A stretch of DNA of 64,000 nucleotides from Bacteroidota bacterium (GCA_013289095.1 JABDAO010000001.1:31223-95222), one strand, 5' to 3'; shown: positions 2,727 through 49,631, numbered from the stretch's first letter. The notes: generated by a model from the sequence alone, not told the origin. Numbers and translations are program-made.

Positions 2727-3117
2727 AAAACATTTTCAGGCTTACGAGCAGCAAGAAGGAGGCAAACACTTTCTTCACTGTTTGCTGATCGAGCGAGATG
2801 CTGATCTTCGATCCGATATAGCCTCCAACTACAAAAGTCGCCGCAATAACAAGCGTAGAAGGAATGTTCACATACCCTCCCTTATAATAATTCATGACCG
2901 CCAAAAAACCTGCAGGAAGGAGCAATACAGCCAGTGAAGTTCCCTGTGCATTGAGCTGCGAATAACCCAGAAAAAGCACCAGGGCAGGAACAATGATAAG
3001 GCCCCCGCCAATTCCAACCATTCCGCTCAGGATGCCCGAAGCAAGACCGATAAGCAGCAGGAGCAAGAGAGAAGTAGTATCCATAGCACGTTTTTTCATC
3101 GTCTGAAGGCGGATCAA
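2716..3117 (-). CDS. Small TauE/SafE (DUF81)-like membrane protein
   Basis: 133 aa, four predicted TM helices, a Gly-rich GMVGIGGGLIIVPALVLF motif. Its ATG overlaps the upstream stop as ATGA. Confidence 0.55.
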   Translation of the reverse strand: MIRLQTMKKRAMDTTSLLLLLLIGLASGILSGMVGIGGGLIIVPALVLFLGYSQLNAQGTSLAVLLLPAGFLAVMNYYKGGYVNIPSTLVIAATFVVGGYIGSKISISLDQQTVKKVFASFLLLVSLKMFFGK

Positions 3118-6100
3118 AAATCCTGTGAAAGCGATAAGTAGGTAATGCGTGGAAGGACCACACCATCCTCCACACCCCGTGCAAAGTCAAGTCTTACGAA
3201 ATAACCAAAGATGCGTGTCCGGAACCCGATTCCAAAACCTTCAACAATGGGGTTCTCATGGTTTTGGATCGTCACGGTGATGGGCATACCGGCATTTCCG
3301 CCAACAATGGTGGTATTGAGTGAGTTTTCGGCCGAATAGGGCGAAGCCCCGTTCCAGGCTGTTCCCGCATCGGCAAAAAGGATGACCTGGAAATTATTGA
3401 TGAAATCAGAACGGATCGGGCGGCTGATGAGGTATTTAAAAATAGGCCAGCGGATTTCTTCGTTCAAAAGCACATAGGAATTCCCGTTCCGGATGTTCTG
3501 ATAAAAACCGCGCATGGGTGTGGCAACGGTCTGAAAACCATAGTTCTGATCATCCGCAATCCGAACCGAGTGATCAAACTGAGGGTTGAACCAATTGTCG
3601 ACCCCACCCATGTAATAGATCAGTTTTTCGGCCCCGGTCGAAGTGCTTCCCGAAAGACGGCTGGCCCAGATCAGATCGCGGTGTATCTTTTGATAATACC
3701 TGAAATCGGCCCCGATCACGGTCATATCCGTTGCTTTGGCATCCACTTGTTTATAATATTCATAAAATATCTTAAAGCGCAAACCGTTATAGAGGTTCAG
3801 ACCTTTGTTCAGTGTATTGTCGAATACATAGGTCAGGTTACCGATGGCCCAGTTATCGTATTCCTGCGGACGGGTCAGACTGATGTCATCCGACGCAAGA
3901 TAGACCGTCTGATCGTTTCGGTAGGTAAGGCTGCCCTGTATCCTGCTTACTTCGCTGAATGGCCAGCGCAGGCGATAGATGGCTTCGTTGGTGTGAATCT
4001 TGATCAGGGAGCCATCGTCGGCGGTGACATCAAGCAGGGATTCGCGGTGAAAGACAAATTGTTTATCCAGTCGATTTGTCCTGTCGTCGTAGCTCAGGAT
4101 ATACTCGTTGCTGCTAAGATCGCCGGCAATACGCACTCCCCCTACAATCTTATGATCCTCGAGCAGATCGGTCATGCCAATTTTAAACAACCCGTCAATG
4201 CCGGGGTTGGTATACACCGGGCTGCCCCCCCCACTGAATTTCTGATAGCTTGCATTCAGAAAACTGTTATCAAGCTGTGTCACCACATATTCGGTGGTAT
4301 ACTGGATTTTATAGTTACGCTGAAGCGGGAGGATAAAATCATCTTTCGGCAAGAGGTGTTTGATTGAATCACGGCGGGCCGAGGTATCTTTTACCATTTC
4401 CGGATTTTTTAAGACGAGGCCGGGAGAGGTATCCTTTTTCTTCGTTTTATCAAAGTTGTAATTATTGATATTTACATTGCTTGTATCTTTCGAAGGCCCG
4501 TATTCGGTTACGTGTACAGTAACCTTCTCCATACCTCCCGCAGGTTTGGAAGGCGCCGGGGCTTCTGCTTTGGCGGCGTTTTTCTTGGCAGCAGCCGAGT
4601 CGGCCGAACTGGTGACTTTAGGCACCCGGAGGCTTTCATTGCGGAAAGGGGTTGTCTTGAGTTTCAGCCCTGCCGGTGGGAATGTCTGCTCATCAATGGG
4701 GCGTATATACATATGGTACTTCCCGTTTGAAAAAACCACTTCTGCATATTTGCCTGCTTTCAGGCTGACATCCTGTTCGATGATATTCCGCCGGTAGTTG
4801 GTTACCGGAACAGAGCTTACAAAATAATTGTAATGAGCTGCCGTATCGACATACGCAATGGTGCTGTCGAAATGCCCTACATACCGGTTCATCACCCCGT
4901 TCGCATCACTCAGGTAGGTGAACCGCTCTCCGTCAAAATCGGAGGGCATGACCTCATTTATTTTTGGCGTACGGGTAACACGGTAAAGTACGTTCGATTT
5001 TGTTTTGGTATTGTAGATAAACAGATCGGTAAAATGGCTCAGGTTGGTTTTGGGATCCTCCATATTACCCCGCAGGGTATCATTTACCCGGTTGGAAGAA
5101 AAAATGATCTGGGTTGATTTATTGATAAAGCGTGGATGCAGGTCGTCATAAATATCCTTGGTGATCTGTTCTGAATTATTTCCGGCAATGGAATAAATAT
5201 AAATATCACTTTGTCCCTTTTGCATGGCCGACATAACCATTTTCTTGCCCTCGTCATCGTATGACATATCGAGCACCTTATCGAAATTGTCGAGGGGCCG
5301 GCTTTCCTTTTCCCCGGTTTCGAGGGTGTAAAAGGTCAGAAAGGTACGGCCGTTTACTTCAGACACATAGGCAAACAGTTTGCCCGAAGGGTGCCAGGCG
5401 ATGATGGGGTAAGTGTAATCATTGATCCGATCGAGCTTGTGCCCGTATTTGAGGATCCTTTTCTTTTTTCCCTTTTCAATATCATAGAGCCAGAATTTCA
5501 CCTTACCCATTTCGTTGGTGACATAGGTGTAATATTTTCCATCAGGACTCAGTTTTAACTGACTGTAAACCCTGGCTGCTTTCACCTTTTTGGGTCTGAG
5601 CAGTTCGGGATCTTTGGGTTGAACCGCGGTGGTATCCGAATATTTGTACCGGTCGGAATAGTAGTTGATCCAGTCGGCAGTCAGGTTCTTGGTCGACACT
5701 CCGAGCACAAAAAGGAATGAGCTCTCGATATTGCGGCTCACCTTGGTCATGTACAGAATATTTGAGACCACGCCTTCACCATAGGTTTCCACAATGTAGT
5801 TCCAGATACTTTGCCCGGCTAGCGTTGCATCATCGCCTGTGAGACGATTGAATATTTTATACCTGCCGCTCAAAATACCATCCTTCACCCTGTTATCCAC
5901 ATCGGTATTCCACTTGCGGGAGGAATAAGCAATGAAGCCTTTTGTATACCACTCAGGCAGATTGAGCAGGGTCGAATTTTTGAGCATATCTTTCAAGGCG
6001 CCTCCGTACATCATATCGTTAAACAAGACTTCGCTGATCCCAGCCTTGATCTGCTCATCAAGCTTGACGTGATCTCCATCGAAATAAACGAACACTTTAC

Positions 6101-11241: not shown

Positions 11242-11738
11242 AGTTTCCGGTTGATTTAGAAAGACGAATATAGGAACAAACCCGCTGATCGGTATACGGA
11301 ACAACTGTCAGAATCACTCTTTTCAGGTCGCTTTGAGTATGATTTTTCTCAGGCTTATGAGTAGCGGGTCTACGCCTTCTTTAAATTCCTCATACTTCCC
11401 GGCCAAAATCCTGAAATGGCTGTCCATGAGATCAGCGATGGATCGGACTAAACTAATACCAACATTGGAGAATAGGGGGCAAGGTCAAAAGTTGGGGAGT
11501 AGCCGACTTTCTGTATCAAAAACGTGAGGACAAAGATCGTTTGAGTGAAAAAATTCGGTCAAGCCTCCGGCAGAATCGTGATCTAAATCAGCATTTTTGT
11601 TAAACATGCTCCGATTTGTAAAAAAACTGGTTTTCCAGGACTAAGAGTGATTTTAGGCACGGAAGTGATTAGAGGACGTGCATCTTTAATGGGTATTCAT
11701 TCTGTTTGCTTACCACGGCTTCCAAACCTTTTGCCATG

Positions 11739-11905
11739 TACTTCGGTTTGATTTACCCGTACTTCAAACCTTTTTTCCTTTACTTCGGTTTGATTTACCC
11801 GTACTTCAAACCTTTTTTCCTTTACTTCGGTTTGATTTACCTGTACTTCAAACCTTTTTACCCCGCCTTCGGTTTGATAACCATGGTCTTCAAACCTTTT
11901 GCCAT
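11739..11905. repeat. 42-bp tandem repeat, about 3.5 copies
   Basis: TACTTCGGTTTGATTTACCCGTACTTCAAACCTTTTTTCCTT recurs at 11739, 11781 and 11823, with a degenerate fourth copy. The ORF at 11706-11966 is a translation artefact of this repeat. Confidence 0.8.
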
Positions 11906-11919
11906 GGCTTTCAAAATCA

Positions 11920-11978
11920 GTAACCCCGCACTTAGAATACGGGGGATGTCATCCCCCGTATTCTAAGCGCGGGGTTAC
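11920..11978. repeat. Long near-perfect palindrome (27-bp arms, 5-nt spacer) built on a REP-like core
   Basis: GTAACCCCGCACTTAGAATACGGGGGA-tgtca-TCCCCCGTATTCTAAGCGCGGGGTTAC, with one mismatch between the arms. Confidence 0.85.
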
Positions 11979-12120
11979 TGATTAGGTCTGTGAGGCGAAA
12001 AATGGGAGAGGCAGAAACATTTCCGTTAATTAAATGACATTGCGCTAAAGCGCGGGGTCACTTATTTCAATACACTCCGTATTAAAGAATCATTGAACCC
12101 TATGACTGTCTGAAACATAC

Positions 12121-12345
12121 TAGCTGCACGCGTTTTAACCCGCATTTTTCAGTTGAAGATGGCTAACCCGCCAGCTCTCAGGAGCAGCGGCCTGCCTGCC
12201 GTAGCTTAGAGGCTTGCGCGACGGCAGGCAGGGATAACCCATCCCGATGAATATCGCGACTGCACAAAATCCAAACGCGCCGAACCCGCCCGGCCAGGGC
12301 ACGTCAGTGATTTGCCGTTCGGACGGGCAGTAGTGCACTACGTTT
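12121..12345. ncRNA. GC-rich structured island inside a 1.6 kb gene-free region; candidate small RNA or leader (class not identified)
   Basis: About 60% GC against a ~40% GC background. It contains a 12-bp perfect stem, CCTGCCTGCCGT...ACGGCAGGCAGG, and has no credible ORF. I found no tmRNA, RNase P or SRP hallmark motifs. Confidence 0.25.
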
Positions 12346-12887
12346 CTACTGTTCATTTTGGGTTTATCTAAAAAGGGTAAATCCCAGAAAATGACGTTGA
12401 CCCGAGAATAGAGGTAGGATGTAAGTAAGATTTAACGAGTAGGCCTGAACTGTGATTCTTGTGATTACAAAGATTGAATGATTAAAATGCTTTTCTGTTT
12501 GGCAATTAGTAAGATGCTACCCACCCGGTCAGATGCAATCAAAACCAGTATAAAATCAGGATAATCAACTCAATCATACCAATCACAGTTCAGACAGTTG
12601 TTACAGGCTGGGTTCAAGCTGATGCCGGACAGATCAAGGGCAGGAAGACAGAGGCTTTTGTGGGTGTCCGGATAGACACTTCCCGGCTTCGGATTGCCTC
12701 TATCCCGGTAGGCTAAGTGATTTCCCCGGAGTATGTTAAATCAATTTCAATCCTGAAGATCCGCTAAAACTGCGTTCCATCGCACAAAAATTTACAAAGC
12801 GGTATCTATATGAATTAATAATATGGAGTGAGATACTTGAAGGAATCTCTTTCATGTTCCCAAATCGCAACTTTAAAATTTCAAATC

Positions 12888-27500: not shown

Positions 27501-28642
27501 GTTCCGGTAACAGTATAGGTAGTTGTCCCGTTAGGCGGGGTGGCTACAACGGTAGCGCCGGTTGATGAACTCAGGGTACCAGCCGGGCTCCAGCTATACG
27601 TAGTGGCTCCGGCAGCGGTGAGGCTAACGGTTCCTCCATTACACAAGGTGGTGGTTACAGGCGTCACCGTGACGGCTGTTCCGCCTACGGTTACGGTTAC
27701 ATTGCTGGTCAAATTTATCACAGAACCATCGCAACTTGTATTTTTAAGATTTGCTGTATATGTTGTGGTTGTAGTTGGACAAACGTTTATAGTGGGGGTT
27801 GTTCCGATGCTCGTTCCGGCTGCATTCGTCCAGTTTAAGGTATAGCTCGGAGCCCCTGTAGGCGAAAATCGCCAGCCTTCGTTGGTGGCCGACCATTGTG
27901 TACTGTTGCGTCCGGGCACGGTAACACAACTGGTATAGGTCGTATTCTGAATCCCTAAAATACCAGCCCCCGCATTCCAGCTGGCGCAGAGTGGCCTGCT
28001 TTGAATATAGACATCAATATAATTGGTTGTTTCGTTTAGTACACACTGCTGTGTAGCGATGAGGTTGTTGCAGGAATAATCGGGTACCACATCCCAGTTG
28101 ATGACAAACTGACGGCAGGGAGCAGTTCCATAGATAGCCCATGTAATATTGCCCGACACGGCCGGATCAATATCGACGTAGGGAGCCATAATATTGGTAG
28201 GGTAGCTTGAATTCGGGATCGGTCCGGGCGACTGGCTCCAGGGATCGGTGTTGTTGGCCTGGGTCAGATCGAATGTAATATCACCATTTGCACCAATCAC
28301 TAATTGATTATAGGAGGTGCCATAATAACAAAAGTTAAAGGGGATGTTAAGAACAGGTGAGAACCAATCATCAATTCCAATCAAAACTGCCGTTCCGGCA
28401 GTAAATGAAGTAGGATTATAGGGAATCGCCGCCACCGAATAAGAGGCCGTACCCAAAGTGCCCTGAACAGTGGTAGTAAGGTTGGTGCAATTTCCGGGAC
28501 AAACCGTAGAAGGGCTGCCAACAGCAATCGAGGCCGCAACTTCGGGACATCCCGTTGTCTGAGAATAAATCCCAAACGGGAGAAAAAGAAGGCACGCAAA
28601 CACGATGAGTTGCGCGACGAAGGAATGTCTTCCTGACTTCAT
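24590..28642 (-). CDS. Giant cell-surface adhesin-like protein: SprB repeats and Ig/PKD-like domains, with a T9SS type-B (gliding-motility-associated) C-terminal domain
   Basis: 1350 aa. Signal peptide MKSGRHSFVAQLIVFACLLFLPFG. At least eight SprB-type repeats (G..PYTYSW / TTYSWSP). A C-terminal ~90 aa matching the CHU_C / gliding C-terminal domain pattern (FTPNGDGHND...). A ~210-bp internal direct duplication. Confidence 0.8.
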   Translation of the reverse strand: MKSGRHSFVAQLIVFACLLFLPFGIYSQTTGCPEVAASIAVGSPSTVCPGNCTNLTTTVQGTLGTASYSVAAIPYNPTSFTAGTAVLIGIDDWFSPVLNIPFNFCYYGTSYNQLVIGANGDITFDLTQANNTDPWSQSPGPIPNSSYPTNIMAPYVDIDPAVSGNITWAIYGTAPCRQFVINWDVVPDYSCNNLIATQQCVLNETTNYIDVYIQSRPLCASWNAGAGILGIQNTTYTSCVTVPGRNSTQWSATNEGWRFSPTGAPSYTLNWTNAAGTSIGTTPTINVCPTTTTTYTANLKNTSCDGSVINLTSNVTVTVGGTAVTVTPVTTTLCNGGTVSLTAAGATTYSWSPAGTLSSSTGATVVATPPNGTTTYTVTGTSGGCTGTATATVTVGAAPVTVTPLTSTVCPGGTVTLTAAGATTYSWSPAGTLSASTGATVVATPTGTTTYTVTGTAGACTGTATSTITVGAPPVLTTSFVGATCGQSDGSATVTAPGAGPFTYSWSPVAGTAATLTNIPAGAYSVTVTSGGCSQTATVNVSNTGGPTMVISAFTNVTCFGGNNGSITATVTGGAAPLTYSWTPGAGITNVENGLTFGLYTVSVTDANGCKVSASQNINQPAVLASTGTKTNITCNGLCNGVANVNATGGTLPYTYAWAPSGGAAASATALCAGNYTCTMTDSKGCTATQIDSVLQPLALTINVAGINASCNGGCNGQLICIPAGGTSPYTYSWNSGCTTPSCNNICAGNYNITVTDASGCTIPGTTVVGQPAAMALTLFPKSANCNLPDGSDSVSVAGGTVPYTYSWTPTPGSATPGYDNLVPGVYTITVTDSKNCQVHDTSTVHNLPGITVSILASVNDSCFNGINGSATAGVVGGAAPYTYSWVPGGNTTATATGLGAGFYTCTIKDASGCFNAQTIQITQPTAVTVTTTAATICISQNTPLIAQGAGGTPGYTYAWINSAGAPVTPPVSPLVTSSYMVVCTDANQCASTLVNVQVTVNPSLTVAVSNDTSICPGNSTALFASATGGDNQYTYVWTPGANLTGANTATPTATPAIATTYTVHVTDNCGTPSDSAFVTITLYAPPIISFTATDTIGCSPLCANFQATSTPACQSAQWVFGDGTTGSGCGVIHHCYPSDTVATFFTVGLTIQDIHGCTSVTSKPGYMTEFPVPIAAFNATPAVASIVNPSIAFTNTSIGANKWTWNFGDVVNAGDTLQNTHYTYPDTGCYRVTLYVQNAFGCKDSTHSEVCIQPEYEFYAPDAFTPNGDGHNDVWRPNGIGIDFSQYTLYIFDRWGNELYESTVWDEGWDGRANHGPNISQIDVYVYRVNVLDFQGNKHVYTGMLNLMK

Positions 28643-29098
28643 TTATTCAAGGATAACTGGAGACGTTGGAATTACTATTGGTACTACAAGTTCGGAATAA
28701 AACAGAACAGCGCAAAGAGAATCAGTGTTTTTAGACGAACATCAATTATTTTATGACGAATCTCGTATTTTTTATGTCCAATATTGAGAATTGAAAAAAA
28801 AAACACGACTGATTTATGCATTCTATCCGGCAAAGCTTTATACAGCTAATTTTATAAGCAGCTGATTTCTACATCACTTTCTATTCCTTTGTACAGGAAA
28901 TGGGTCCAAGTTATTCGTCTGTTATTGTGAATTGGTGAAAATACCGCTGACATTTTTACTGCCGGAGACAGCGTATGTGTGCGGATTTCTCGTTTCAAAT
29001 CCTGAAGTTCAGAACTGATCTAATCATGGATTCGGTGGGTTCTGCATTCACTCCCTTATTTCAAAAGAAGTTTTTGTACAGCTACCGTTTTATCGGTA

Positions 29099-29389
29099 GT
29101 TAGGGTTCACTCAAAAGGTCGGCAATCTAGTGGAGGACTTTTTGAGTGAACACTAAGTAACCCCGCGCTTTAGCGCGGGGTATAAATACCCCACATCCGC
29201 GGGCTTTAGCCCAATAAGCATGCACCTGGCGTTCTCTTTTGGGCTGAAGCCCAACGTTCAAAGGGATGACATACCCCGCGCTAAAGCGCGGGGTTACTAA
29301 TTGATGCAGGTAACGTACCTTTTAATAGGTTGATAAATACACGCAAGGAAGCCTATCGTGTTCTGACTTTTTGAGTGAACCCTAATTAA
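29099..29389. mobile_element. MITE-like non-autonomous element with 17-bp terminal inverted repeats (TTAGGGTTCACTCAAAA) and two REP-like palindromes inside
   Basis: Left end TTAGGGTTCACTCAAAAGGTCGGCAATCTAGTGGAGGA (itself a hairpin with CTTTTTGAGTGAAC). Right end TTTTGAGTGAACCCTAA at 29369-29385. Interior carries ACCCCGCGCTTTAGCGCGGGGT and its partner. A second copy is at 47396-47729. Confidence 0.5.
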
Positions 29390-29472
29390 TATTTACCCGA
29401 ATCTCGCTCAAAACATGAATCTTTTCTACCTTAGCTACCGATTATTCAGAACATCATCTAAACTATCAAGCT

Positions 29473-30414
29473 ATGAAAGTTACCGTAGTAGGAGCAGGAA
29501 ACGTAGGAGCTACATGCGCCGATGTAATTGCCCACAAAGAGTTGGCCAATGAGGTTGTATTGGTTGACATCAAAGAAAATTTTGCCGAAGGAAAAGCGCT
29601 GGACATCTGGCAGACCGCTCCGATCAATATGTACGATACCCGGATAACCGGATCGACCAACGATTACTCAAAAACAGCAAACTCAGATGTGGTGGTGATC
29701 ACCTCCGGTCTTCCGCGTAAGCCCGGCATGAGTCGTGATGACCTTATTTCGACAAACGCCGGGATTGTAAAAAGCGTGACCGAAAACATCATCAAGCATT
29801 CTCCAAAAGCAATCATCATCATCGTATCCAATCCGCTGGATGTAATGACCTATTGTGCCTACCTGACCGCTAAAATTGATTCAAAACGCGTGTTTGGTAT
29901 GGCCGGCATACTCGACACCGCACGTTACCGCGCATTCCTGGCCGAGGCCCTGAACTGCTCGCCGAAAGATATACAGGCTGTGTTGATGGGCGGGCATGGT
30001 GATACCATGGTTCCACTCCCCCGTTACACCACCGTAGGCGGGATTCCGGTTACCGAACTCATCTCCAAAGAAAAACTGGATGCCATCATCGAACGCACCA
30101 AAAAAGGCGGGGGCGAAATCGTCAACCTGCTCGGCACATCGGCCTGGTATGCTCCCGGAGCTGCTGCTGCACAGATGGTGGAAGCCATCCTACGCGACCA
30201 GAAACGCATCTTCCCGGTCTGCGCGATGCTGAACGGTGAATATGGCCTGAAAAATATCTACCTCGGAGTTCCGGTGAAACTGGGCAAGAACGGTATCGAA
30301 GAAATCATAGAACTGAAACTGAACAAGGAAGAAAAAGAACTGCTCGATGCTTCGGCAAAATCGGTCAAGGAAGTCATGACTGTGCTTGACAACATGAATA
30401 TGGCAGTTAAATAG
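29473..30414 (+). CDS. mdh: Malate dehydrogenase (LDH-like MDH family)
   Basis: VVGAGNVGAT Rossmann motif, the catalytic region with the DTARYR segment, 313 aa. Confidence 0.95.
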   Translation: MKVTVVGAGNVGATCADVIAHKELANEVVLVDIKENFAEGKALDIWQTAPINMYDTRITGSTNDYSKTANSDVVVITSGLPRKPGMSRDDLISTNAGIVKSVTENIIKHSPKAIIIIVSNPLDVMTYCAYLTAKIDSKRVFGMAGILDTARYRAFLAEALNCSPKDIQAVLMGGHGDTMVPLPRYTTVGGIPVTELISKEKLDAIIERTKKGGGEIVNLLGTSAWYAPGAAAAQMVEAILRDQKRIFPVCAMLNGEYGLKNIYLGVPVKLGKNGIEEIIELKLNKEEKELLDASAKSVKEVMTVLDNMNMAVK

Positions 30415-32185: not shown

Positions 32186-32448
32186 TGTAGAGCAAAGAAA
32201 CGAAATAATCACAAAGTACTGATGGTGTATGAACAATCGGTGTACCTGCCATTTCAAGCAGACTTCTCCTTCAGAAAACAGCGGCAGGCACACCCTGTTT
32301 TATTGTTTTTGAAGCTGTCCGCTCAACAACTCCCCAGATTGCCAACCTGTATCTCTGATGAAGGACCTCTATCTATAGATTGAGTGTGGGGTAATGTCAA
32401 AAGCTGGGGGGCAGAGATCGAATGACTGCTGCATGTTGGTCCAGCCAG

Positions 32449-33040
32449 AGACACGTTCCCCCGGGGTTCCCGACACATTCCCGAAGGTTCCCGACATGTT
32501 CCCTAAGCTTCCCGACATGTTTACTAAGCTTCCCGACATGTTCCCTTAGGTTCCCGACATGTTTCCTAAGCTTCCCGACACGTTCCCCAAGGTTCCCGAC
32601 ATGTTTACTAAGCTTCCCGACATGTTCCCCAAGCTTCCCGACATGTTTACTAAGCTTCCCGACATGTTCCCCAAGCTTCCCGACACGTTTACTAAGCTTC
32701 CCGACATGTTTACTAAGCTTCCCGACACGTTTACTAAGCTTCCCGACATGTTTACTAAGCTTCCCGACATGTTCCCCAAGCTTCCCGACATGTTCCCCAA
32801 GCTTCCCGACATGTTTACTAAGCTTCCCGACACGTTTACTAAGCTTCCCGACATGTTTACTAAGCTTCCCGACATGTTCCCCAAGGTTCCCGACATGTTT
32901 ACTAAGCTTCCCGACATGTTCCCTAAGCTTCCCGACATGTTCCCCAAGGTTCCCGACATGTTCCCTTAGTTTCCCGACATGTTCCCCGAGGTTCCTTACA
33001 CGTTCCCTGAGGTTCCCGACATGTTCCCCGAGGTTCCTGA
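32449..33040. repeat. 21-bp tandem repeat array of about 28 units, core TTCCCGACAYGTT with a 7-bp variable tail
   Basis: Units [C/G]TTCCCGACA[T/C]GTT[TACTAAG / CCCCAAG / CCCTAAG...] in head-to-tail order with degenerate edge units. Each carries an ACATGT palindrome. Four of six frames are open through the array: listed ORFs 32397-33062(-), 32422-33261(+), 32559-32969(+), 32546-32959(-). Confidence 0.92.
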
Positions 33041-33540
33041 TTCTTTCTCCTAATCGAATCACATTCTATACACACTTTATCACATTCTATCCAGTCTTTA
33101 TACCAAGCATTACAGTTTCCAGACACTTCTATACATCCTTTATCGGCTGCAGGAGAGCTTTCTCCCATTTAAAGGCTCATCCCGGGAGGCATCGGGTCTT
33201 TAAAATGACCAAGAAAAGGTATAAAACAGGTTACTCCCCGGAAAATGACTTTGACCCTTGAGTGTCTGCATCTATAGATGCAGCACAGATAATCACTTCC
33301 CTACATGCCGAAGCTCTGTCAATCACAACAGCAGACAGGTGTGACTAAAATCATTCAGTGATCATAACGTTCTCAATAAGGCGTGATTTGCAACACCGTT
33401 TCTCTCCATTTTGAAGACTTAAAGATAATTTCGGTGAGCATGTAGTCTTCGCTGAGCGTGCTTTTTATGCCATCAGACAACGATTGCCCTTCCTCAACTA
33501 ATTCCAAATCAATATCTTTGCGCCCAAATCCATCTCCAAC

Positions 33541-34707: not shown

Positions 34708-34802
34708 GGATTGGTGGCGTATCTGTTTTTTTATTCTGATTTTAAATTTCGGATTCGAACATTTTTCTGTACACATGCCTGCATTTTCATCATTAATCTT
34801 GA

Positions 34803-34891
34803 GGGCATCTCTAATAATCCCTTCCAAACATTCCCTCTCCTTGGGAGAGGGTCAGGGAGAGGTCAAGAAAACGGGGGTATTAGAGATGCCC
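34803..34891. repeat. ~90-bp hairpin element with GGGCATCTCTAATAA / TATTAGAGATGCCC termini (copy 1)
   Basis: Terminal 13-14-bp inverted repeats, an internal CCCTCTCC..GGAGAGGG stem, and a GGTCAGGGAGAGGTCAAG core. A near-identical copy sits at 45859-45948. Confidence 0.6.
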
Positions 34892-35095
34892 TTGATTAAA
34901 ATTCTGTTCCAGCAAACAAGTCTATTTCATATATTTGATAGTATCAAATGATACCATCATGATGATGAAAAGACCGTTCGCATTTATATTTCGCCGGACG
35001 GAAAAATAGTCAAAACAAGCTATACTGCCTGATTGGGCTCTGAACCGATGCTGTGCCTGGAGGATTCCAAGGTAGGTGGATAAAAAGCATGCCCC

Positions 35096-45858: not shown

Positions 45859-45948
45859 GGGCATCTCTGCTAATCTCTTCCAAACATTCCCTCCGCCCCT
45901 TGGAGAGGGTTAGGTGAGGTCAATAAAATGGGGTTGTTAGAGATGCCC
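45859..45948. repeat. ~90-bp hairpin element, copy 2 (GGGCATCTCTGCTAAT ... TTAGAGATGCCC)
   Basis: About 85% identical to 34803-34891, in the same orientation, in the lpxD/PP2C intergenic region. Confidence 0.6.
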
Positions 45949-46018
45949 TGGCGCTGCCACATTACCGCACACACGGTCTGGAGCCTTGCTCAGAATCCAA
46001 AAATAATAGTAGCCAGCT

Positions 46019-47251
46019 ATGTCAGAAGATACCCGGGGGAAAGAATCGGCTTCAAGACCGAAGATAAAAGACATCAAATTAAATTCTATCCTGGAGGTCA
46101 CCAAGGCCATCAACAATAATTTTTCGACCGAAAAACTGCTGGAGATCTTTGAAACCGTGTTAAAAGACCAGCTCAACATTGGCAAGCTCGTTCTTTTTAG
46201 TTACAACAGCGGTTGGAAATGCATCCTCAAATACGGCGTTGAAGACGAGATGGCCGCCATTGATGTGGCCAAAGAATTTGGCCAGATCAAAGAAATAAGC
46301 ACGATAGACTATACCTCGTCTGCAGCCCGTCATACCTTCGAAATTGTGGTGCCCGTATATCACAAATCAAGCCCTCTTGCCTATGTGCTCATCGGCGATT
46401 TGAACGAGGACAAGCTTGAGGTCAGCGCAGCCATCAAACACCTGCCCTTTGTGCAGACCCTGGCCAATATCATTGTAGTGGCCATCGAAAACAAAAAACT
46501 GGCAAAGGCAAACATACGCCAGGCCGCCATGAACAAAGAACTTGAGCTGGCTTCGGAAATGCAGAACATGCTTTTCCCCAGTACCCTGCCCAACAATGAA
46601 CGTTTGCAGATCAGCGCATTCTATCTGCCCCATCAGCAAGTTGGGGGCGATTATTATGATTTCATCCAGCTCGACGAAAACGAAGTGGCTTTTTGCATGG
46701 CCGATGTATCGGGCAAAGGAGTCCCGGCAGCGCTGCTCATGTCGAACTTCCAGGCCAATCTCCGCATCCTGTTGCATACCATGACCTCGCTCACCGATCT
46801 GGTCAAGGAACTTAACACCAAGGTGACACAAAATGCAAAGGGCGAAAAATTCATTACCCTCTTCATCGCCCGTTACAATATCCTGACACGGGTTCTGACC
46901 TATATCAATGCCGGGCATAACCCCCCGTTATTGGCTACAGAAAACAGCATTTCCCTGCTCCGCGTGGGGTGTACAGGCCTTGGAATGTTTGATGAACTGA
47001 GCAAAGTAAAAGAAGGCGTGGTAAGTGTTGACCCCGGTTCGGTTATCCTCTGTTATACCGATGGGGTGGTAGAGATAGAAAACGAAGCCGAAGAAGAGTT
47101 CGGAGTCAATTCTCTGCGTCAAACACTCCGTTCAAATTTCAAGCTGAATATGGAGACCCTCAACGACACTATTATTTCGGAAGTCATCAGGTACAAAGGC
47201 GATATGCCTTATATGGATGATATTGCACTGTTTAGTTGCAGGGTGTTTTAA
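46019..47251 (+). CDS. PP2C-family Ser/Thr phosphatase with an N-terminal sensor (GAF-like) domain (SpoIIE/RsbU-type)
   Basis: C-terminal PP2C motifs (GGDYYDF, MADVSGKGVPAALLMS, YTDGVVE). Confidence 0.85.
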   Translation: MSEDTRGKESASRPKIKDIKLNSILEVTKAINNNFSTEKLLEIFETVLKDQLNIGKLVLFSYNSGWKCILKYGVEDEMAAIDVAKEFGQIKEISTIDYTSSAARHTFEIVVPVYHKSSPLAYVLIGDLNEDKLEVSAAIKHLPFVQTLANIIVVAIENKKLAKANIRQAAMNKELELASEMQNMLFPSTLPNNERLQISAFYLPHQQVGGDYYDFIQLDENEVAFCMADVSGKGVPAALLMSNFQANLRILLHTMTSLTDLVKELNTKVTQNAKGEKFITLFIARYNILTRVLTYINAGHNPPLLATENSISLLRVGCTGLGMFDELSKVKEGVVSVDPGSVILCYTDGVVEIENEAEEEFGVNSLRQTLRSNFKLNMETLNDTIISEVIRYKGDMPYMDDIALFSCRVF

Positions 47252-47395
47252 GTATCCCATCCGATGATACCGATGTCTGCCATTCTATCCCGGCATACAG
47301 CACTCCGTTGCAATGGTTCGCCTTTGGCCAGGGCATCCGAAAAGACACCCTCCGTCTGGTTAAAGTTCGCAGATCTGTATCTGCATCCTTTACCC

Positions 47396-47729
47396 TATAT
47401 AGGGTTCACTCAAACACCTGCAACCATCACCCAATCAACACATCATGTCTCATTTTCATCATTGAGATGCAATACTAAATACCGTTTCCAATCAAAACCC
47501 TTGCACCAAGCAGTACGTGGACGAACGTTGTGTTCAAAGGAATTTTTGCTTTCACACATGCCCGCTCAAAGACCTGCCAGGTCTTTGCCGCTTTTTGCTT
47601 GCCCAACCCCGCCTGCCGACGCGCAGGAAGCTTGAGGGGCGGGGCAGGAAAGTAACGCAAAAAAGGCCTCACGCGGAGAGCGATTCGTCCTCCACTAGAT
47701 TGCCGACTTTTTGAGTGAACCCTAATTAA
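47396..47729. mobile_element. MITE-like element, copy 2 (TIRs TAGGGTTCACTCAAA / TTTGAGTGAACCCTAA)
   Basis: It shares the TIR and the adjacent GTCGGCAATCTAGTGGAGGA module (here reverse-complemented next to the right TIR) with 29099-29389. The interior differs and contains several GC-rich hairpins. Confidence 0.45.
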
Positions 47730-47785: not shown

Positions 47786-48034
47786 ATGCATGCAAAATGA
47801 CTTGAAATGCATGTATAATGATCCATTATTCTTGAATAATAGATTGAAATGCTTGCATACTGATTTAAAATGCATGCATAATGATCCTTTATTCTTGAAT
47901 AATGGATTGAAATGCATGCATAATGATCCTTTTTGCATGTATACTGGTTTGAAATGCATGCATAATGATCCTTTTTGCATGTATACTGGTTTGAAATGCA
48001 TGCATAATGATCCATTATGCTTCATTCGTAAACG
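47786..48034. repeat. AT-rich 42-bp tandem repeat array of about 6 units, each carrying ATGCATGCAT-type palindromes
   Basis: TTGAAATGCATGCATAATGATCCTTTTTGCATGTATACTGGT appears twice perfectly with four to five diverged units. GC is about 33% against the ~48% window average. Both strands give Cys/Met/His-rich repeat ORFs: 47766-48041(+) and 47726-48091(-). Confidence 0.8.
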
Positions 48035-48179
48035 TAAATGAACTGATCGGGGTTCGGAAACAAGGAAGACACATGAAGCACTACTGAACATGATTTGTCA
48101 GTACCTGAACATTCATCAGGAGAAACAGACAATTGAAGTTCAGAGAGCGTATTCCCGAAGAATAACCGAAGTATGTTCT

Positions 48180-49631
48180 TTACCCGGCTATCAGCCCGGG
48201 TGTTTTTTCCTCTGCAGATGCACCCCGGTGATAAATATCGGCCGCTACGAGGATAGCGATAAACCCCCAGAAGGGAACCGAGGCCTTGTCGGTATCCAGG
48301 AAATTGTTCAACCCTCCATGCACCATATACGTTACAAGACCCAGCAGCACAGCCAGGGTGGTGCTTCGCAGATCGCCTTTGGGAAGGCGGTAAAACAGTC
48401 TTGAACCGGTCCAGATGACACAGATAAGGATAGCCACAAACGAACCGGCTCCGAGCATTCCCGATTCGCAAAGCGGGCCTATGTATTCGCTGTGCGCATT
48501 GCCCTTGTTGCCGGCGTTGGTACTGATGCTTGTTTTCTCGCTCGATAACTGGAACGGGGCATATTGAAAACTATAGGTTCCGGGCCCCCATCCTAAAATG
48601 GGGCGTTCGTGAAACATACGCATGGCCGAATTCCAGCGGTTGAGTCGCTCCAGGTTTGAGGCATCGGTCGAAATATTTGAGATCGACTGAACGTGTTCGG
48701 TGAGGTTGGTGGAAGAATCCTGGCGGTTTTTTTCGAGCTTGCGTACAAGATCACCCCAAACCATAGCCAGGATGATGGCAATAGCAGCAGCGCTGATCAG
48801 TAACGTGCGGATCCCTACACGGAACATATAAATGAGCCACAAGGCAAGGGCAATCAGTAGGCTTACCCAGGCAGCACGTGTATACGAAAAGATAAGGGCA
48901 ACGGTAAAAATGCAGAAGAGGATGAGCGAAAAGATCCGGCCGCTGGGTGAGAGAGAGCGATTAAAAATAAACGATACCACGAGCGGGAAAAACATAGCCA
49001 AAATGGCCCCATAGGCAGTGTGGTCGTTAAAAAACGGGGCCATGACCCAGTGGGCAGGGTCTTCGCGGAACCCAAACTGGCTGTGGTTATACAGGGTATA
49101 CCCAATGACAATAACCAAGGGGATGATATACAACCAGATGAATCTACGGATTTGGGCTTGTTTTTGAAAAACCTGGACGGCAAGGAAATAAAAACAGGTC
49201 ACGAACCACAAACGGGCCAGCAGGAATTTGAATGAAATGACCGGCATCTCGCTGGTGACAGCAGTCACAAAAATCCAGCCCAGGTTTATCAGCAAGGCGA
49301 TGGTTACCGGGTGACGGATGATCCGCATATCGTATTTGCCTTCGTACAACATCTTGAAAAAATACAGAAGCATCACCCCGATCATCAGGGGTTCGGTTGG
49401 CAGGCTTAGCCCCAGCCTGAACTCGGGATCGGTAATAGTGATCGAGAGCGGGGTAAAAAAGACAATGATGAGCAGTAAGGTATCGACCGAAACAAAAGCG
49501 AGGTAGATAATGATGCAGACTACCGGCAGGAGGTTGAGCCAGTAGAATTCAAAAAAACAACAGAGGGTGTTGAGCACCACAAAAGCAGCGCTTAAACTAA
49601 AAATCCAGCGAAGTTTTAGGGTCTGGTTCAA
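48180..49631 (-). CDS. O-antigen ligase / Wzy_C-family polymerase-like membrane protein
   Basis: About 12 TM helices with a periplasmic loop bearing the YTRAAWVSLLIALALW motif, at 483 aa. Confidence 0.72.
   Translation of the reverse strand: MNQTLKLRWIFSLSAAFVVLNTLCCFFEFYWLNLLPVVCIIIYLAFVSVDTLLLIIVFFTPLSITITDPEFRLGLSLPTEPLMIGVMLLYFFKMLYEGKYDMRIIRHPVTIALLINLGWIFVTAVTSEMPVISFKFLLARLWFVTCFYFLAVQVFQKQAQIRRFIWLYIIPLVIVIGYTLYNHSQFGFREDPAHWVMAPFFNDHTAYGAILAMFFPLVVSFIFNRSLSPSGRIFSLILFCIFTVALIFSYTRAAWVSLLIALALWLIYMFRVGIRTLLISAAAIAIILAMVWGDLVRKLEKNRQDSSTNLTEHVQSISNISTDASNLERLNRWNSAMRMFHERPILGWGPGTYSFQYAPFQLSSEKTSISTNAGNKGNAHSEYIGPLCESGMLGAGSFVAILICVIWTGSRLFYRLPKGDLRSTTLAVLLGLVTYMVHGGLNNFLDTDKASVPFWGFIAILVAADIYHRGASAEEKTPGLIAG

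Follow-up and report, generated by a model that had tools for sequence, protein, structure and literature searches.

Introduction

MITEs have been described in Bacteroidota both in Cardinium, where the element is derived from IS982 (PMC9769881), and in Porphyromonas gingivalis, where they include BrickBuilt, whose defining feature is a 23-nt minisatellite enclosed by a leader and a tail that bear the inverted ends, and others (PMC4596501). Among autonomous insertion sequences (ISs), ISMae6 of Microcystis aeruginosa belongs to the IS5 family, is 1686 bp long and is present in eight copies in NIES-843 (PMC2779907). REP/REPIN doublets are mobilised by RAYT tyrosine transposases and carry a conserved GTAG or CGTC tag; GTAG-type REPs are listed by Di Nocera et al. 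outside Bacteroidetes, which are catalogued with the CGTC type only (PMC3733652).

In this study, we analysed a window of 64,000 nucleotides (64 kb) from a Bacteroidota bacterium (GCA_013289095.1; JABDAO010000001.1, 31223-95222), in which two copies of a MITE-like element had been proposed from the sequence alone (the original prediction); all coordinates without an accession or locus label count from the first letter of this window. We consider it highly probable that both elements are non-autonomous MITE-type derivatives of an IS5-family IS of an ISMae6-like clade, which is widespread among Bacteroidota. The MITEs of Cardinium and P. gingivalis are alike in being short, intergenic and transposase-less, in having inverted-repeat ends and in owing their origin or their mobility to a resident IS, whereas the parent in Cardinium is IS982 and that of the window elements is IS5/ISMae6-like. 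A BrickBuilt-type architecture was considered and rejected: tandem arrays were looked for inside both copies and neither encloses one, and the array at 47786-48040 lies outside copy 2.

Correia elements of Neisseria are about 100-150 bp long, end in inverted repeats, use a target that is AT-rich and contains TA, and are often found near promoters, forming hairpins in transcripts. They have no known parent transposase. The window elements differ from them in that a parent IS is identified and in having no known sequence similarity to them. Within a known IS5 clade, the family forms a Bacteroidota branch that has no name; it is an ordinary kind of mobile DNA, and no new mechanism is revealed. 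What the analysis gives is an identity (IS5, ISMae6-like, with a 1601-bp parent and a TA-NN-TA target) for an unannotated repeat that fragments Bacteroidota MAGs. Knowledge of the ends helps to close contig breaks and to avoid spurious ORF calls in such spacers, and flags possible promoter-proximal insertions, for example upstream of mdh.

Terminal repeats and positions of the two copies

The 17-mer TTAGGGTTCACTCAAAA has six matches in the window at three mismatches or fewer, against 0.24 expected, and none of 100 shuffles reached six. This is far above chance and bears out the two-copy family with a 17-bp terminal inverted repeat that had been proposed. The sixth match (35654, three mismatches) falls within an ORF of 405 aa and is probably due to chance.

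Copy 1 measures 284 bp from TAGGG to CCCTA (29101-29384) and occupies the divergent intergenic region between a SprB-like gene and mdh, with its right end about 88 nt upstream of the mdh ATG. The arms of the whole element are 24 nt long (92%). The left terminal inverted repeat TTAGGGTTCACTCAAAA (29100-29116, plus strand) is exact and, as predicted, the copy ends in its exact reverse complement at 29369-29385 (minus strand); a third, internal terminal repeat is present at 29140-29156 (minus strand) with one mismatch. Copy 2 measures 325 bp from TAGGG to CCCTA in the sequence (47400-47724), with a SpoIIE-domain gene (46019-47251) on one side and a Wzy_C gene (48180-49631, minus strand) on the other. 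Its left terminal repeat ATAGGGTTCACTCAAAC (47399-47415, plus strand) is of the left-end type and has two mismatches, with 15 nt exact from TAGGG, and its right terminal inverted repeat (47709-47725, minus strand) is exact.

The right ends of copies 1 and 2, GACTTTTTGAGTGAACCCTAATTAA, are identical over 25 nt. In addition, a module of 39-42 nt, TTAGGGTTCACTCAAAAGGTCGGCAATCTAGTGGAGGAC, is common to 29097-29138 and 47687-47728, inverted and 95% complementary. In the inverted-repeat comparison of the two copies, the subterminal module GGTCGGCAATCTAGTGGAGGAC of copy 1 (29117-29138, minus strand) is of the right-end type, and its inverted counterpart is the right-end module GTCCTCCACTAGATTGCCGAC of copy 2 (47687-47708, plus strand). 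The claim that copy 2 shares the termini and the inverted module of copy 1 is upheld for the right terminus and the module, while the left terminus is shared with two mismatches. The interiors do differ, since BLASTN of one against the other gave no match anywhere, and tblastn with the matching transposases described below gave a best E of 0.6, in agreement with the claim that the window has no transposase.

An autonomous insertion sequence with the same ends

An exact scan for the 20-nt end TAGGGTTCACTCAAAARGTC, with one genome per species, returned 54 loci, the source genome not being among those returned. Of these loci, 53 come from about 25 Bacteroidota MAGs, which bear the labels Flavobacterium, Saprospiraceae, Cytophagales, Bacteroidia or Bacteroidota; the termini are thus repeated widely. 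The remaining match, in Pluralibacter (L009), has no TA flank and was rejected as a chance match; about two such matches are expected, by estimate, for a 19.5-nt pattern in 596 Gb. The identity of the 20-nt end across the Flavobacterium, Saprospiraceae, Cytophagales and Bacteroidia MAGs points to a horizontal spread of one IS lineage within Bacteroidota. More than half of the loci (30/54) lie 250 nt or less from a contig or tile end with the interior of the element pointing outward, 11 of them at 50-55 nt, and massing of this kind at contig ends marks a repeat whose many copies interrupt assemblies made from short reads. In the MAG JBBTBZ, 12 such ends share one subterminal sequence.

Loci with both ends on one contig fall into two size classes, of about 1.6 kb and of 290-400 bp. 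Elements of the 1.6-kb class, among them the full-length L045 (851-2453) and L013 (3537-5121), code for one protein only, of 490-506 aa. ENA and Logan assemblies yielded eight further copies, L071-L078, all measuring exactly 1601 bp from TAGGG to CCCTA. The 1601-bp IS begins with TAGGGTTCACTCAA and ends with TTTTTGAGTGAACCCTA; the termini as tested for inverted repeats are TAGGGTTCACTCAA.../...TTGAGTGAACCCTA, the end also being written TAGGGTTCAC. The 15-17-nt ends in the window are identical to those of the 1601-bp IS in L045 and L071-L078, so that the termini match those of an autonomous IS, and the lengths of 284 and 325 bp without transposase coding capacity lie within the size range of MITEs (below about 600 bp).

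The protein contains the Pfam domains DUF772 (PF05598) and DDE_Tnp_1_2 (PF13586). Both full-length transposases score above the cut-off of 275 bits on the NCBIfam model NF033578 (IS5 family), with 358.5 and 360.2 bits. Assignments to IS1182 (model scores 49-60 against a cut-off of 270) and to ISNCY (110-122 against 325) were rejected. In L045 the transposase has 506 aa and ends in ...RRSATF, and the transposase stop codon is a TGA inside the right inverted repeat (...ACT TTT TGA GTG AAC CCT A). A transposase with matching ends, for which a search had been suggested, hence exists, as an IS5-family DDE gene between TAGGGTTCACTCAA and TTTTTGAGTGAACCCTA in other metagenomes; all copies of this parent IS that were found come from genomes other than the source genome. 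The autonomous element, 1601 bp long, encodes a single DDE transposase of about 500 aa, and the stop codon of this gene falls within the right repeat.

Several public contigs with the 506-aa transposase (L071-L078; Logan contigs of 1602-1663 bp) have about the length of the IS. Because they are almost exactly 1601 bp long, the IS is assembled in them as a collapsed repeat.

Target site and duplication

TA is found at -4/-3 outside TAGGG at 48 of 53 ends and at all 16 ends of L071-L078, and all 16 flanks of these eight 1601-bp copies follow the arrangement TA-NN, IS, NN-TA. The dinucleotide NN is perfectly duplicated in 5/5 elements of the MAG JAJRTW and in 2/2 of MEPB01. The duplicated dinucleotides are TT (L010 and L024), AT (L026, L038, L046 and L021), AA (L042) and TA (L053) in MITEs, and AT (L045, L071, L075 and L078) and CT (L074) in ISs. 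Because non-palindromic dinucleotides (TT, AA and CT) are duplicated, this is a direct duplication and not an extension of the inverted repeat; its length may be taken as 2, 4 or 6 bp, since TA-NN-TA is palindromic at its edges. Inverted repeats together with a duplication at a TA-containing target, besides the NF033578 score, are features of the IS5 family. The 1601-bp IS thus inserts at TA-NN-TA and duplicates at least the central NN. The unequal flanks of L072, L073, L076 and L077 look like chimeric joins across the collapsed repeat; L073 and L074 have a common left flank.

TA directly precedes GGG and follows CCC at every end, and such TA flanks would also be expected if the MITEs stemmed from an element of the IS630/Tc1-mariner type. 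The gene enclosed by these ends, however, encodes a transposase of the IS5 family and not of IS630, which excludes an origin of this type, and the duplication takes in a variable NN between two TAs, unlike the simple TA duplication of IS630; we give this reading next to no credence.

In the window, copy 1 is flanked by TA-GT (29097-29100, plus strand) and AT-TA (29385-29388), and copy 2 by TA-TA (47396-47399, plus strand) and AT-TA (47725-47728). Both copies follow the TA-NN flank rule, with an outer TA on both sides, and neither has a clean NN duplication, the inner NN being unequal (GT/AT in copy 1 and TA/AT in copy 2). This mismatch points to age or rearrangement in both copies.

Comparison with ISMae6

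The nearest named relatives of the transposase are the cyanobacterial ISMae6 and ISAcma17, with about 42% aa identity. A copy of the ISMae6 family on a Microcystis plasmid (L070) has the ends TTAATTAGGGTTTGCTGAATAA...TTTTTCAGCAAACCCTAATTAA and measures 1686 bp from TAGGG to CCCTA, equal to the published length (PMC2779907). The ISMae6 ends TAGGGTTTGCTGAA...CCCTAATTAA are near-identical to those of the Bacteroidota IS. Both encode a single DDE transposase of about 450-500 aa of the NF033578 clade (358 bits), both have termini that start with TAGGGTT and a right end of the form GACTTTTT-N7-AACCCTAATTAA, and ISMae6 shares with the Bacteroidota family the TA-AT / AT-TA flanks and, about 70 nt inward of the left end, a subterminal ATGCA. 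The two differ in that their aa identity is only about 42%, in their hosts (Cyanobacteria against Bacteroidota), in the inner half of the repeat (CACTCAAAA against TGCTGAAAA) and in the position of the stop codon, which is inside the right repeat in the Bacteroidota IS, whereas the CDS of the ISMae6 copy ends about 36 nt before the repeat.

Short derivatives and their mobility

Six loci of short transposase-less derivatives with one common interior were found in JAJRTW, five of them complete and about 287 bp long, and five loci with another common interior, of 362-396 bp, in MEPB01; each locus in these two MAGs lies in different flanks. Since interiors are shared in different flanks, transposase-less derivatives of the 1.6-kb IS do amplify. 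The MITE interpretation of both window elements is supported in this way by a parent IS with the same ends and by derivatives amplified in other MAGs. Of the three checks suggested with the original prediction, two turned out favourable to it, and the third was not decisive. One MITE copy of MEPB01 (L023, 2345-4104; MEPB01000070.1) carries an IS110-family insertion in its interior, with the transposase at 2823-3896 (183 bits on NF033542).

The window copies retain what would be needed in cis, namely the terminal repeats of 15-17 nt and the right-end subterminal sequence (GTC...), to which copy 2 adds the left-end subterminal GATGCA at its canonical offset. Because the gene is lost, they could be moved only by a related transposase made elsewhere in the genome, and we infer such mobilisation in trans in the source genome. 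When the two interiors were compared by BLASTN with the window and with all fetched loci, matches were obtained at the termini only, so neither window copy is shown as a member of an amplified subfamily. Scans of the JGI metagenomes gave no matches for CTCAAAARGTCGGCAATCTAGT or for the degenerate pattern GGGTTCACTCAAAMASYYRSAACMM, which represents the right end of copy 1 and the left end of copy 2, and the window subfamilies were thus not traceable. A scan of viral contigs for the generic end returned no matches, and a literature search for the end sequence returned no papers.

Two Logan contigs of sample SRR8422484 contain the genes adjacent to the elements, and the encoded proteins are identical. 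One of them (L001) ends precisely 30 nt within copy 1, at its right end, and the other (L069) precisely 30 nt within copy 2, at its left end. In the Logan k=31 graph, a unitig stops where the next 31-mer occurs at another locus. On this reading, the two stops imply that the sample holds further copies which share 12-15 nt beyond the generic repeat, and the source genome presumably does as well. Exact look-ups of the genes flanking copy 2 returned a single Logan contig, broken within the element, and nothing for the Wzy_C gene.

These data also bear on the serious rival, according to which both loci are dead relics, that is, full-length IS copies or solo ends which decayed in place, or underwent deletion and rearrangement there, which never moved as short elements and which are immobile now. 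Such a history would account for the mismatched flanking dinucleotides, the two mismatches in the left end of copy 2, the unique interiors, the composite build of copy 1 with its extra inverted end and nested insertion, and the lack of a transposase in the window. It is at odds with the finding that neither interior has residual similarity to a transposase gene (tblastn E>0.6), that both ends are kept with near-perfect terminal repeats, that the Logan contigs break at the element boundaries, implying at least 30 nt of the ends in common with other loci of the sample, and that short derivatives of this IS have clearly been amplified in other MAGs. On balance we regard dead relics as unlikely and prefer the derivation of both elements as MITEs of the IS5-family IS.

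The orthologous spacers

Relatives with 97-98% identical Mdh keep the SprB-mdh synteny, and the terminal repeat was sought in their orthologous SprB-mdh spacers and found in none. About 70 nt upstream of the mdh ATG can be aligned among the relatives, and copy 1 is inserted just upstream of this block; the exact empty site is not definable because the intergenic DNA of the relatives is too diverged. The comparison of empty and filled sites that had been recommended thus produced spacers without the terminal repeat, but the exact empty site was not recovered.

The absence of the element from the orthologous spacer in all close relatives also speaks against a conserved regulatory hairpin or small RNA family, such as a terminator, an attenuator or a protein-binding site. 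Such a role would suit the intergenic position of both elements and the very stable DNA fold of copy 1 (z -12.9) at its distance of about 88 nt from the mdh ATG. The same ends, however, border a transposase gene and are found at unrelated loci in several Bacteroidota orders. Rfam gave no gathering-score matches in the whole window, the best sub-threshold score in 28640-29480 being 23 bits against a cut-off of 50, promoter-like and terminator-like sites were not enriched over shuffles, and the interior of copy 2 has no more structure than expected by chance. The regulatory reading is therefore already largely refuted and we consider it very improbable, against the preferred MITE-type derivation.

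As a separate observation on this intergenic region, in one close relative (L061, 347-1831; PLXK01000064.1, GCA_003151415.1) the SprB-like gene is separated from mdh by a gene of 494 aa for which no Pfam hit is recorded. Other relatives have only spacer at the place of this gene, and the L061 spacer also contains an NN gap.

Left end and interior of copy 2

Copy 2 is a simple element with one left end and one right end. The first 100 nt of the left ends of two full-length ISs, five MITEs, copy 2 and ISMae6 were aligned, and an invariant T-CA (columns T69, C71 and A72) was found in GATGCA, about 66-68 nt from the terminus. The offset of GATGCA from the left end is constant in the full-length ISs, the MITEs of other MAGs, copy 2 and ISMae6. 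In copy 2 the motif is located at 47466-47471 (plus strand), 67 nt from the left terminus in the left-end alignment, and since it is aligned, copy 2 possesses at least about 72 nt of genuine left end and not a mere 15-nt match. The interior of copy 2 had been described as hairpin-rich, which was not confirmed by folding against shuffles (z +0.97 and -0.96). An ORF that overlaps copy 2 (47264-47635) gave no hit in a Pfam search.

Composite structure of copy 1

Copy 1 is a composite and not a simple MITE. Its left 39 nt are right-end-type sequence, and the complement of its module (29117-29138) reads ...SSTRLPTF-stop, like the transposase C-termini ...SATF and ...LSTF. The left foldback (29100-29156) is 57 nt long, and its stem, for which 12 bp had been predicted, in fact comprises 20 bp with one mismatch; its DNA fold has an energy of -15.3 kcal/mol (z -6.8). 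The foldback is followed by a 141-nt palindromic unit (29157-29297) and then by 84 nt that end in the canonical right end. Direct copies of TAA (29154-29156 and 29298-29300) border the 141-nt unit.

In this arrangement, the right-end-type sequence at the left end folds back on an extra terminal repeat, and copy 1 would later have been hit by the 141-nt REP-doublet-like palindrome, with duplication of TAA. We infer this order of events from the arrangement of the parts; copy 1 also allows parsing as a 57-bp mini-element, a REP-like doublet and a solo right end.

The nested palindromic unit

The 141-nt unit nested in copy 1 folds with -52.8 kcal/mol (z -10.1) and consists of two inverted GTAA-CCCCGCGC-TTTA-GCGCGGGG-TAT hairpins that enclose a spacer hairpin. 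Two perfect palindromes had been predicted inside copy 1. Both are present, as the ends of this single unit, and are of the type GTAACCCCGCGC, but the first had been misplaced at 29165-29186; they lie at 29160-29181 and 29273-29294. The sequence ACCCCGCGCTTTAGCGCGGGGT occurs twice, inverted, in the unit, as in REP repeats, whose palindromic units measure 20-40 nt and are often paired as inverted doublets.

The resemblance to REP/REPIN repeats comprises a G+C-rich perfect palindrome of 22-26 nt with an unpaired 4-nt tag at one end and the occurrence of inverted doublets that fold into one long hairpin, besides singlets. The difference lies in the tag of the nested unit, which is GTAA and not GTAG or CGTC. 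A near-perfect palindrome of 69 nt at 11915-11983 (z -14.1), with GTAACCCCGC ends as in the nested unit of copy 1, is a variant inverted doublet of the same small repeat family, to which a single GT(A/G)ACCCCGCGCTTTAGCGC unit at 12042-12066 (minus strand) also belongs. The family is thereby represented in the 64-kb window by five units at three loci, with the tag GTAA, or GTGA in the singlet at 12042. The GTAA-tagged palindrome pattern was absent from the 68 fetched loci, and the REP-like palindrome had no matches in viral contigs.

A GTAA-tagged REPIN-like doublet that was inserted with TAA duplication into an IS5-derived MITE might represent a second, undescribed mobile system. Judged from the nucleotide sequence, this is a tentative suggestion to which we attach a rather low probability. 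If hundreds of units and a cognate RAYT-type tyrosine transposase were present in the genome, the units would constitute a GTAG-like REP system in Bacteroidota; if true, this would, together with the hairpin repeats of about 91 nt and the 21-nt arrays described below, denote an unusually repeat-rich environmental Bacteroidia lineage.

Other repeats in the window

Three tandem arrays with mutually unrelated units were noted. At 32341-33166, 27 tandem copies of the 21-nt unit TTCCCGACATGTTYMCYAAGC occupy a 1.25-kb gap between genes. The minus strand of this array (32397-33062, 221 aa) encodes a near-perfect heptad L-[SG]-[KE]-H-V-G-K about 27 times, for which Pfam gives coiled-coil-type families only, so that it is a candidate coiled-coil gene or a non-coding minisatellite. 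The arrays at 47786-48040, which lies beyond copy 2 at a distance of 61 nt from its right end, and at 11700-11906, which abuts the REP-like doublet at 11915, have a period of 21/42 nt and lie in long intergenic gaps; the ORFs through these two gave no hit in a Pfam search. A period of 21 nt equals two helical turns, which suggests that the 21-nt arrays are putative phased binding sites.

A hairpin element of about 91 nt, with 20-nt inverted ends AGGGCATCTCTAATAATCCC / GGGGGTATTAGAGATGCCCT, is present at 34802-34892 and 45859-45949, both intergenic. The two copies have 85% column identity over aligned stretches of 116 nt, flanks included, and their RNA folds have energies of -51.7 and -42.8 kcal/mol (z -5.6 and -3.6), respectively. 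Finally, a gene-free stretch of 1.58 kb (11305-12887) holds a G+C-rich hairpin near 12190-12235 and a 22-nt inverted-repeat pair (12445-12466 and 12572-12593; 86%, 105 nt apart), which is possibly a small element.
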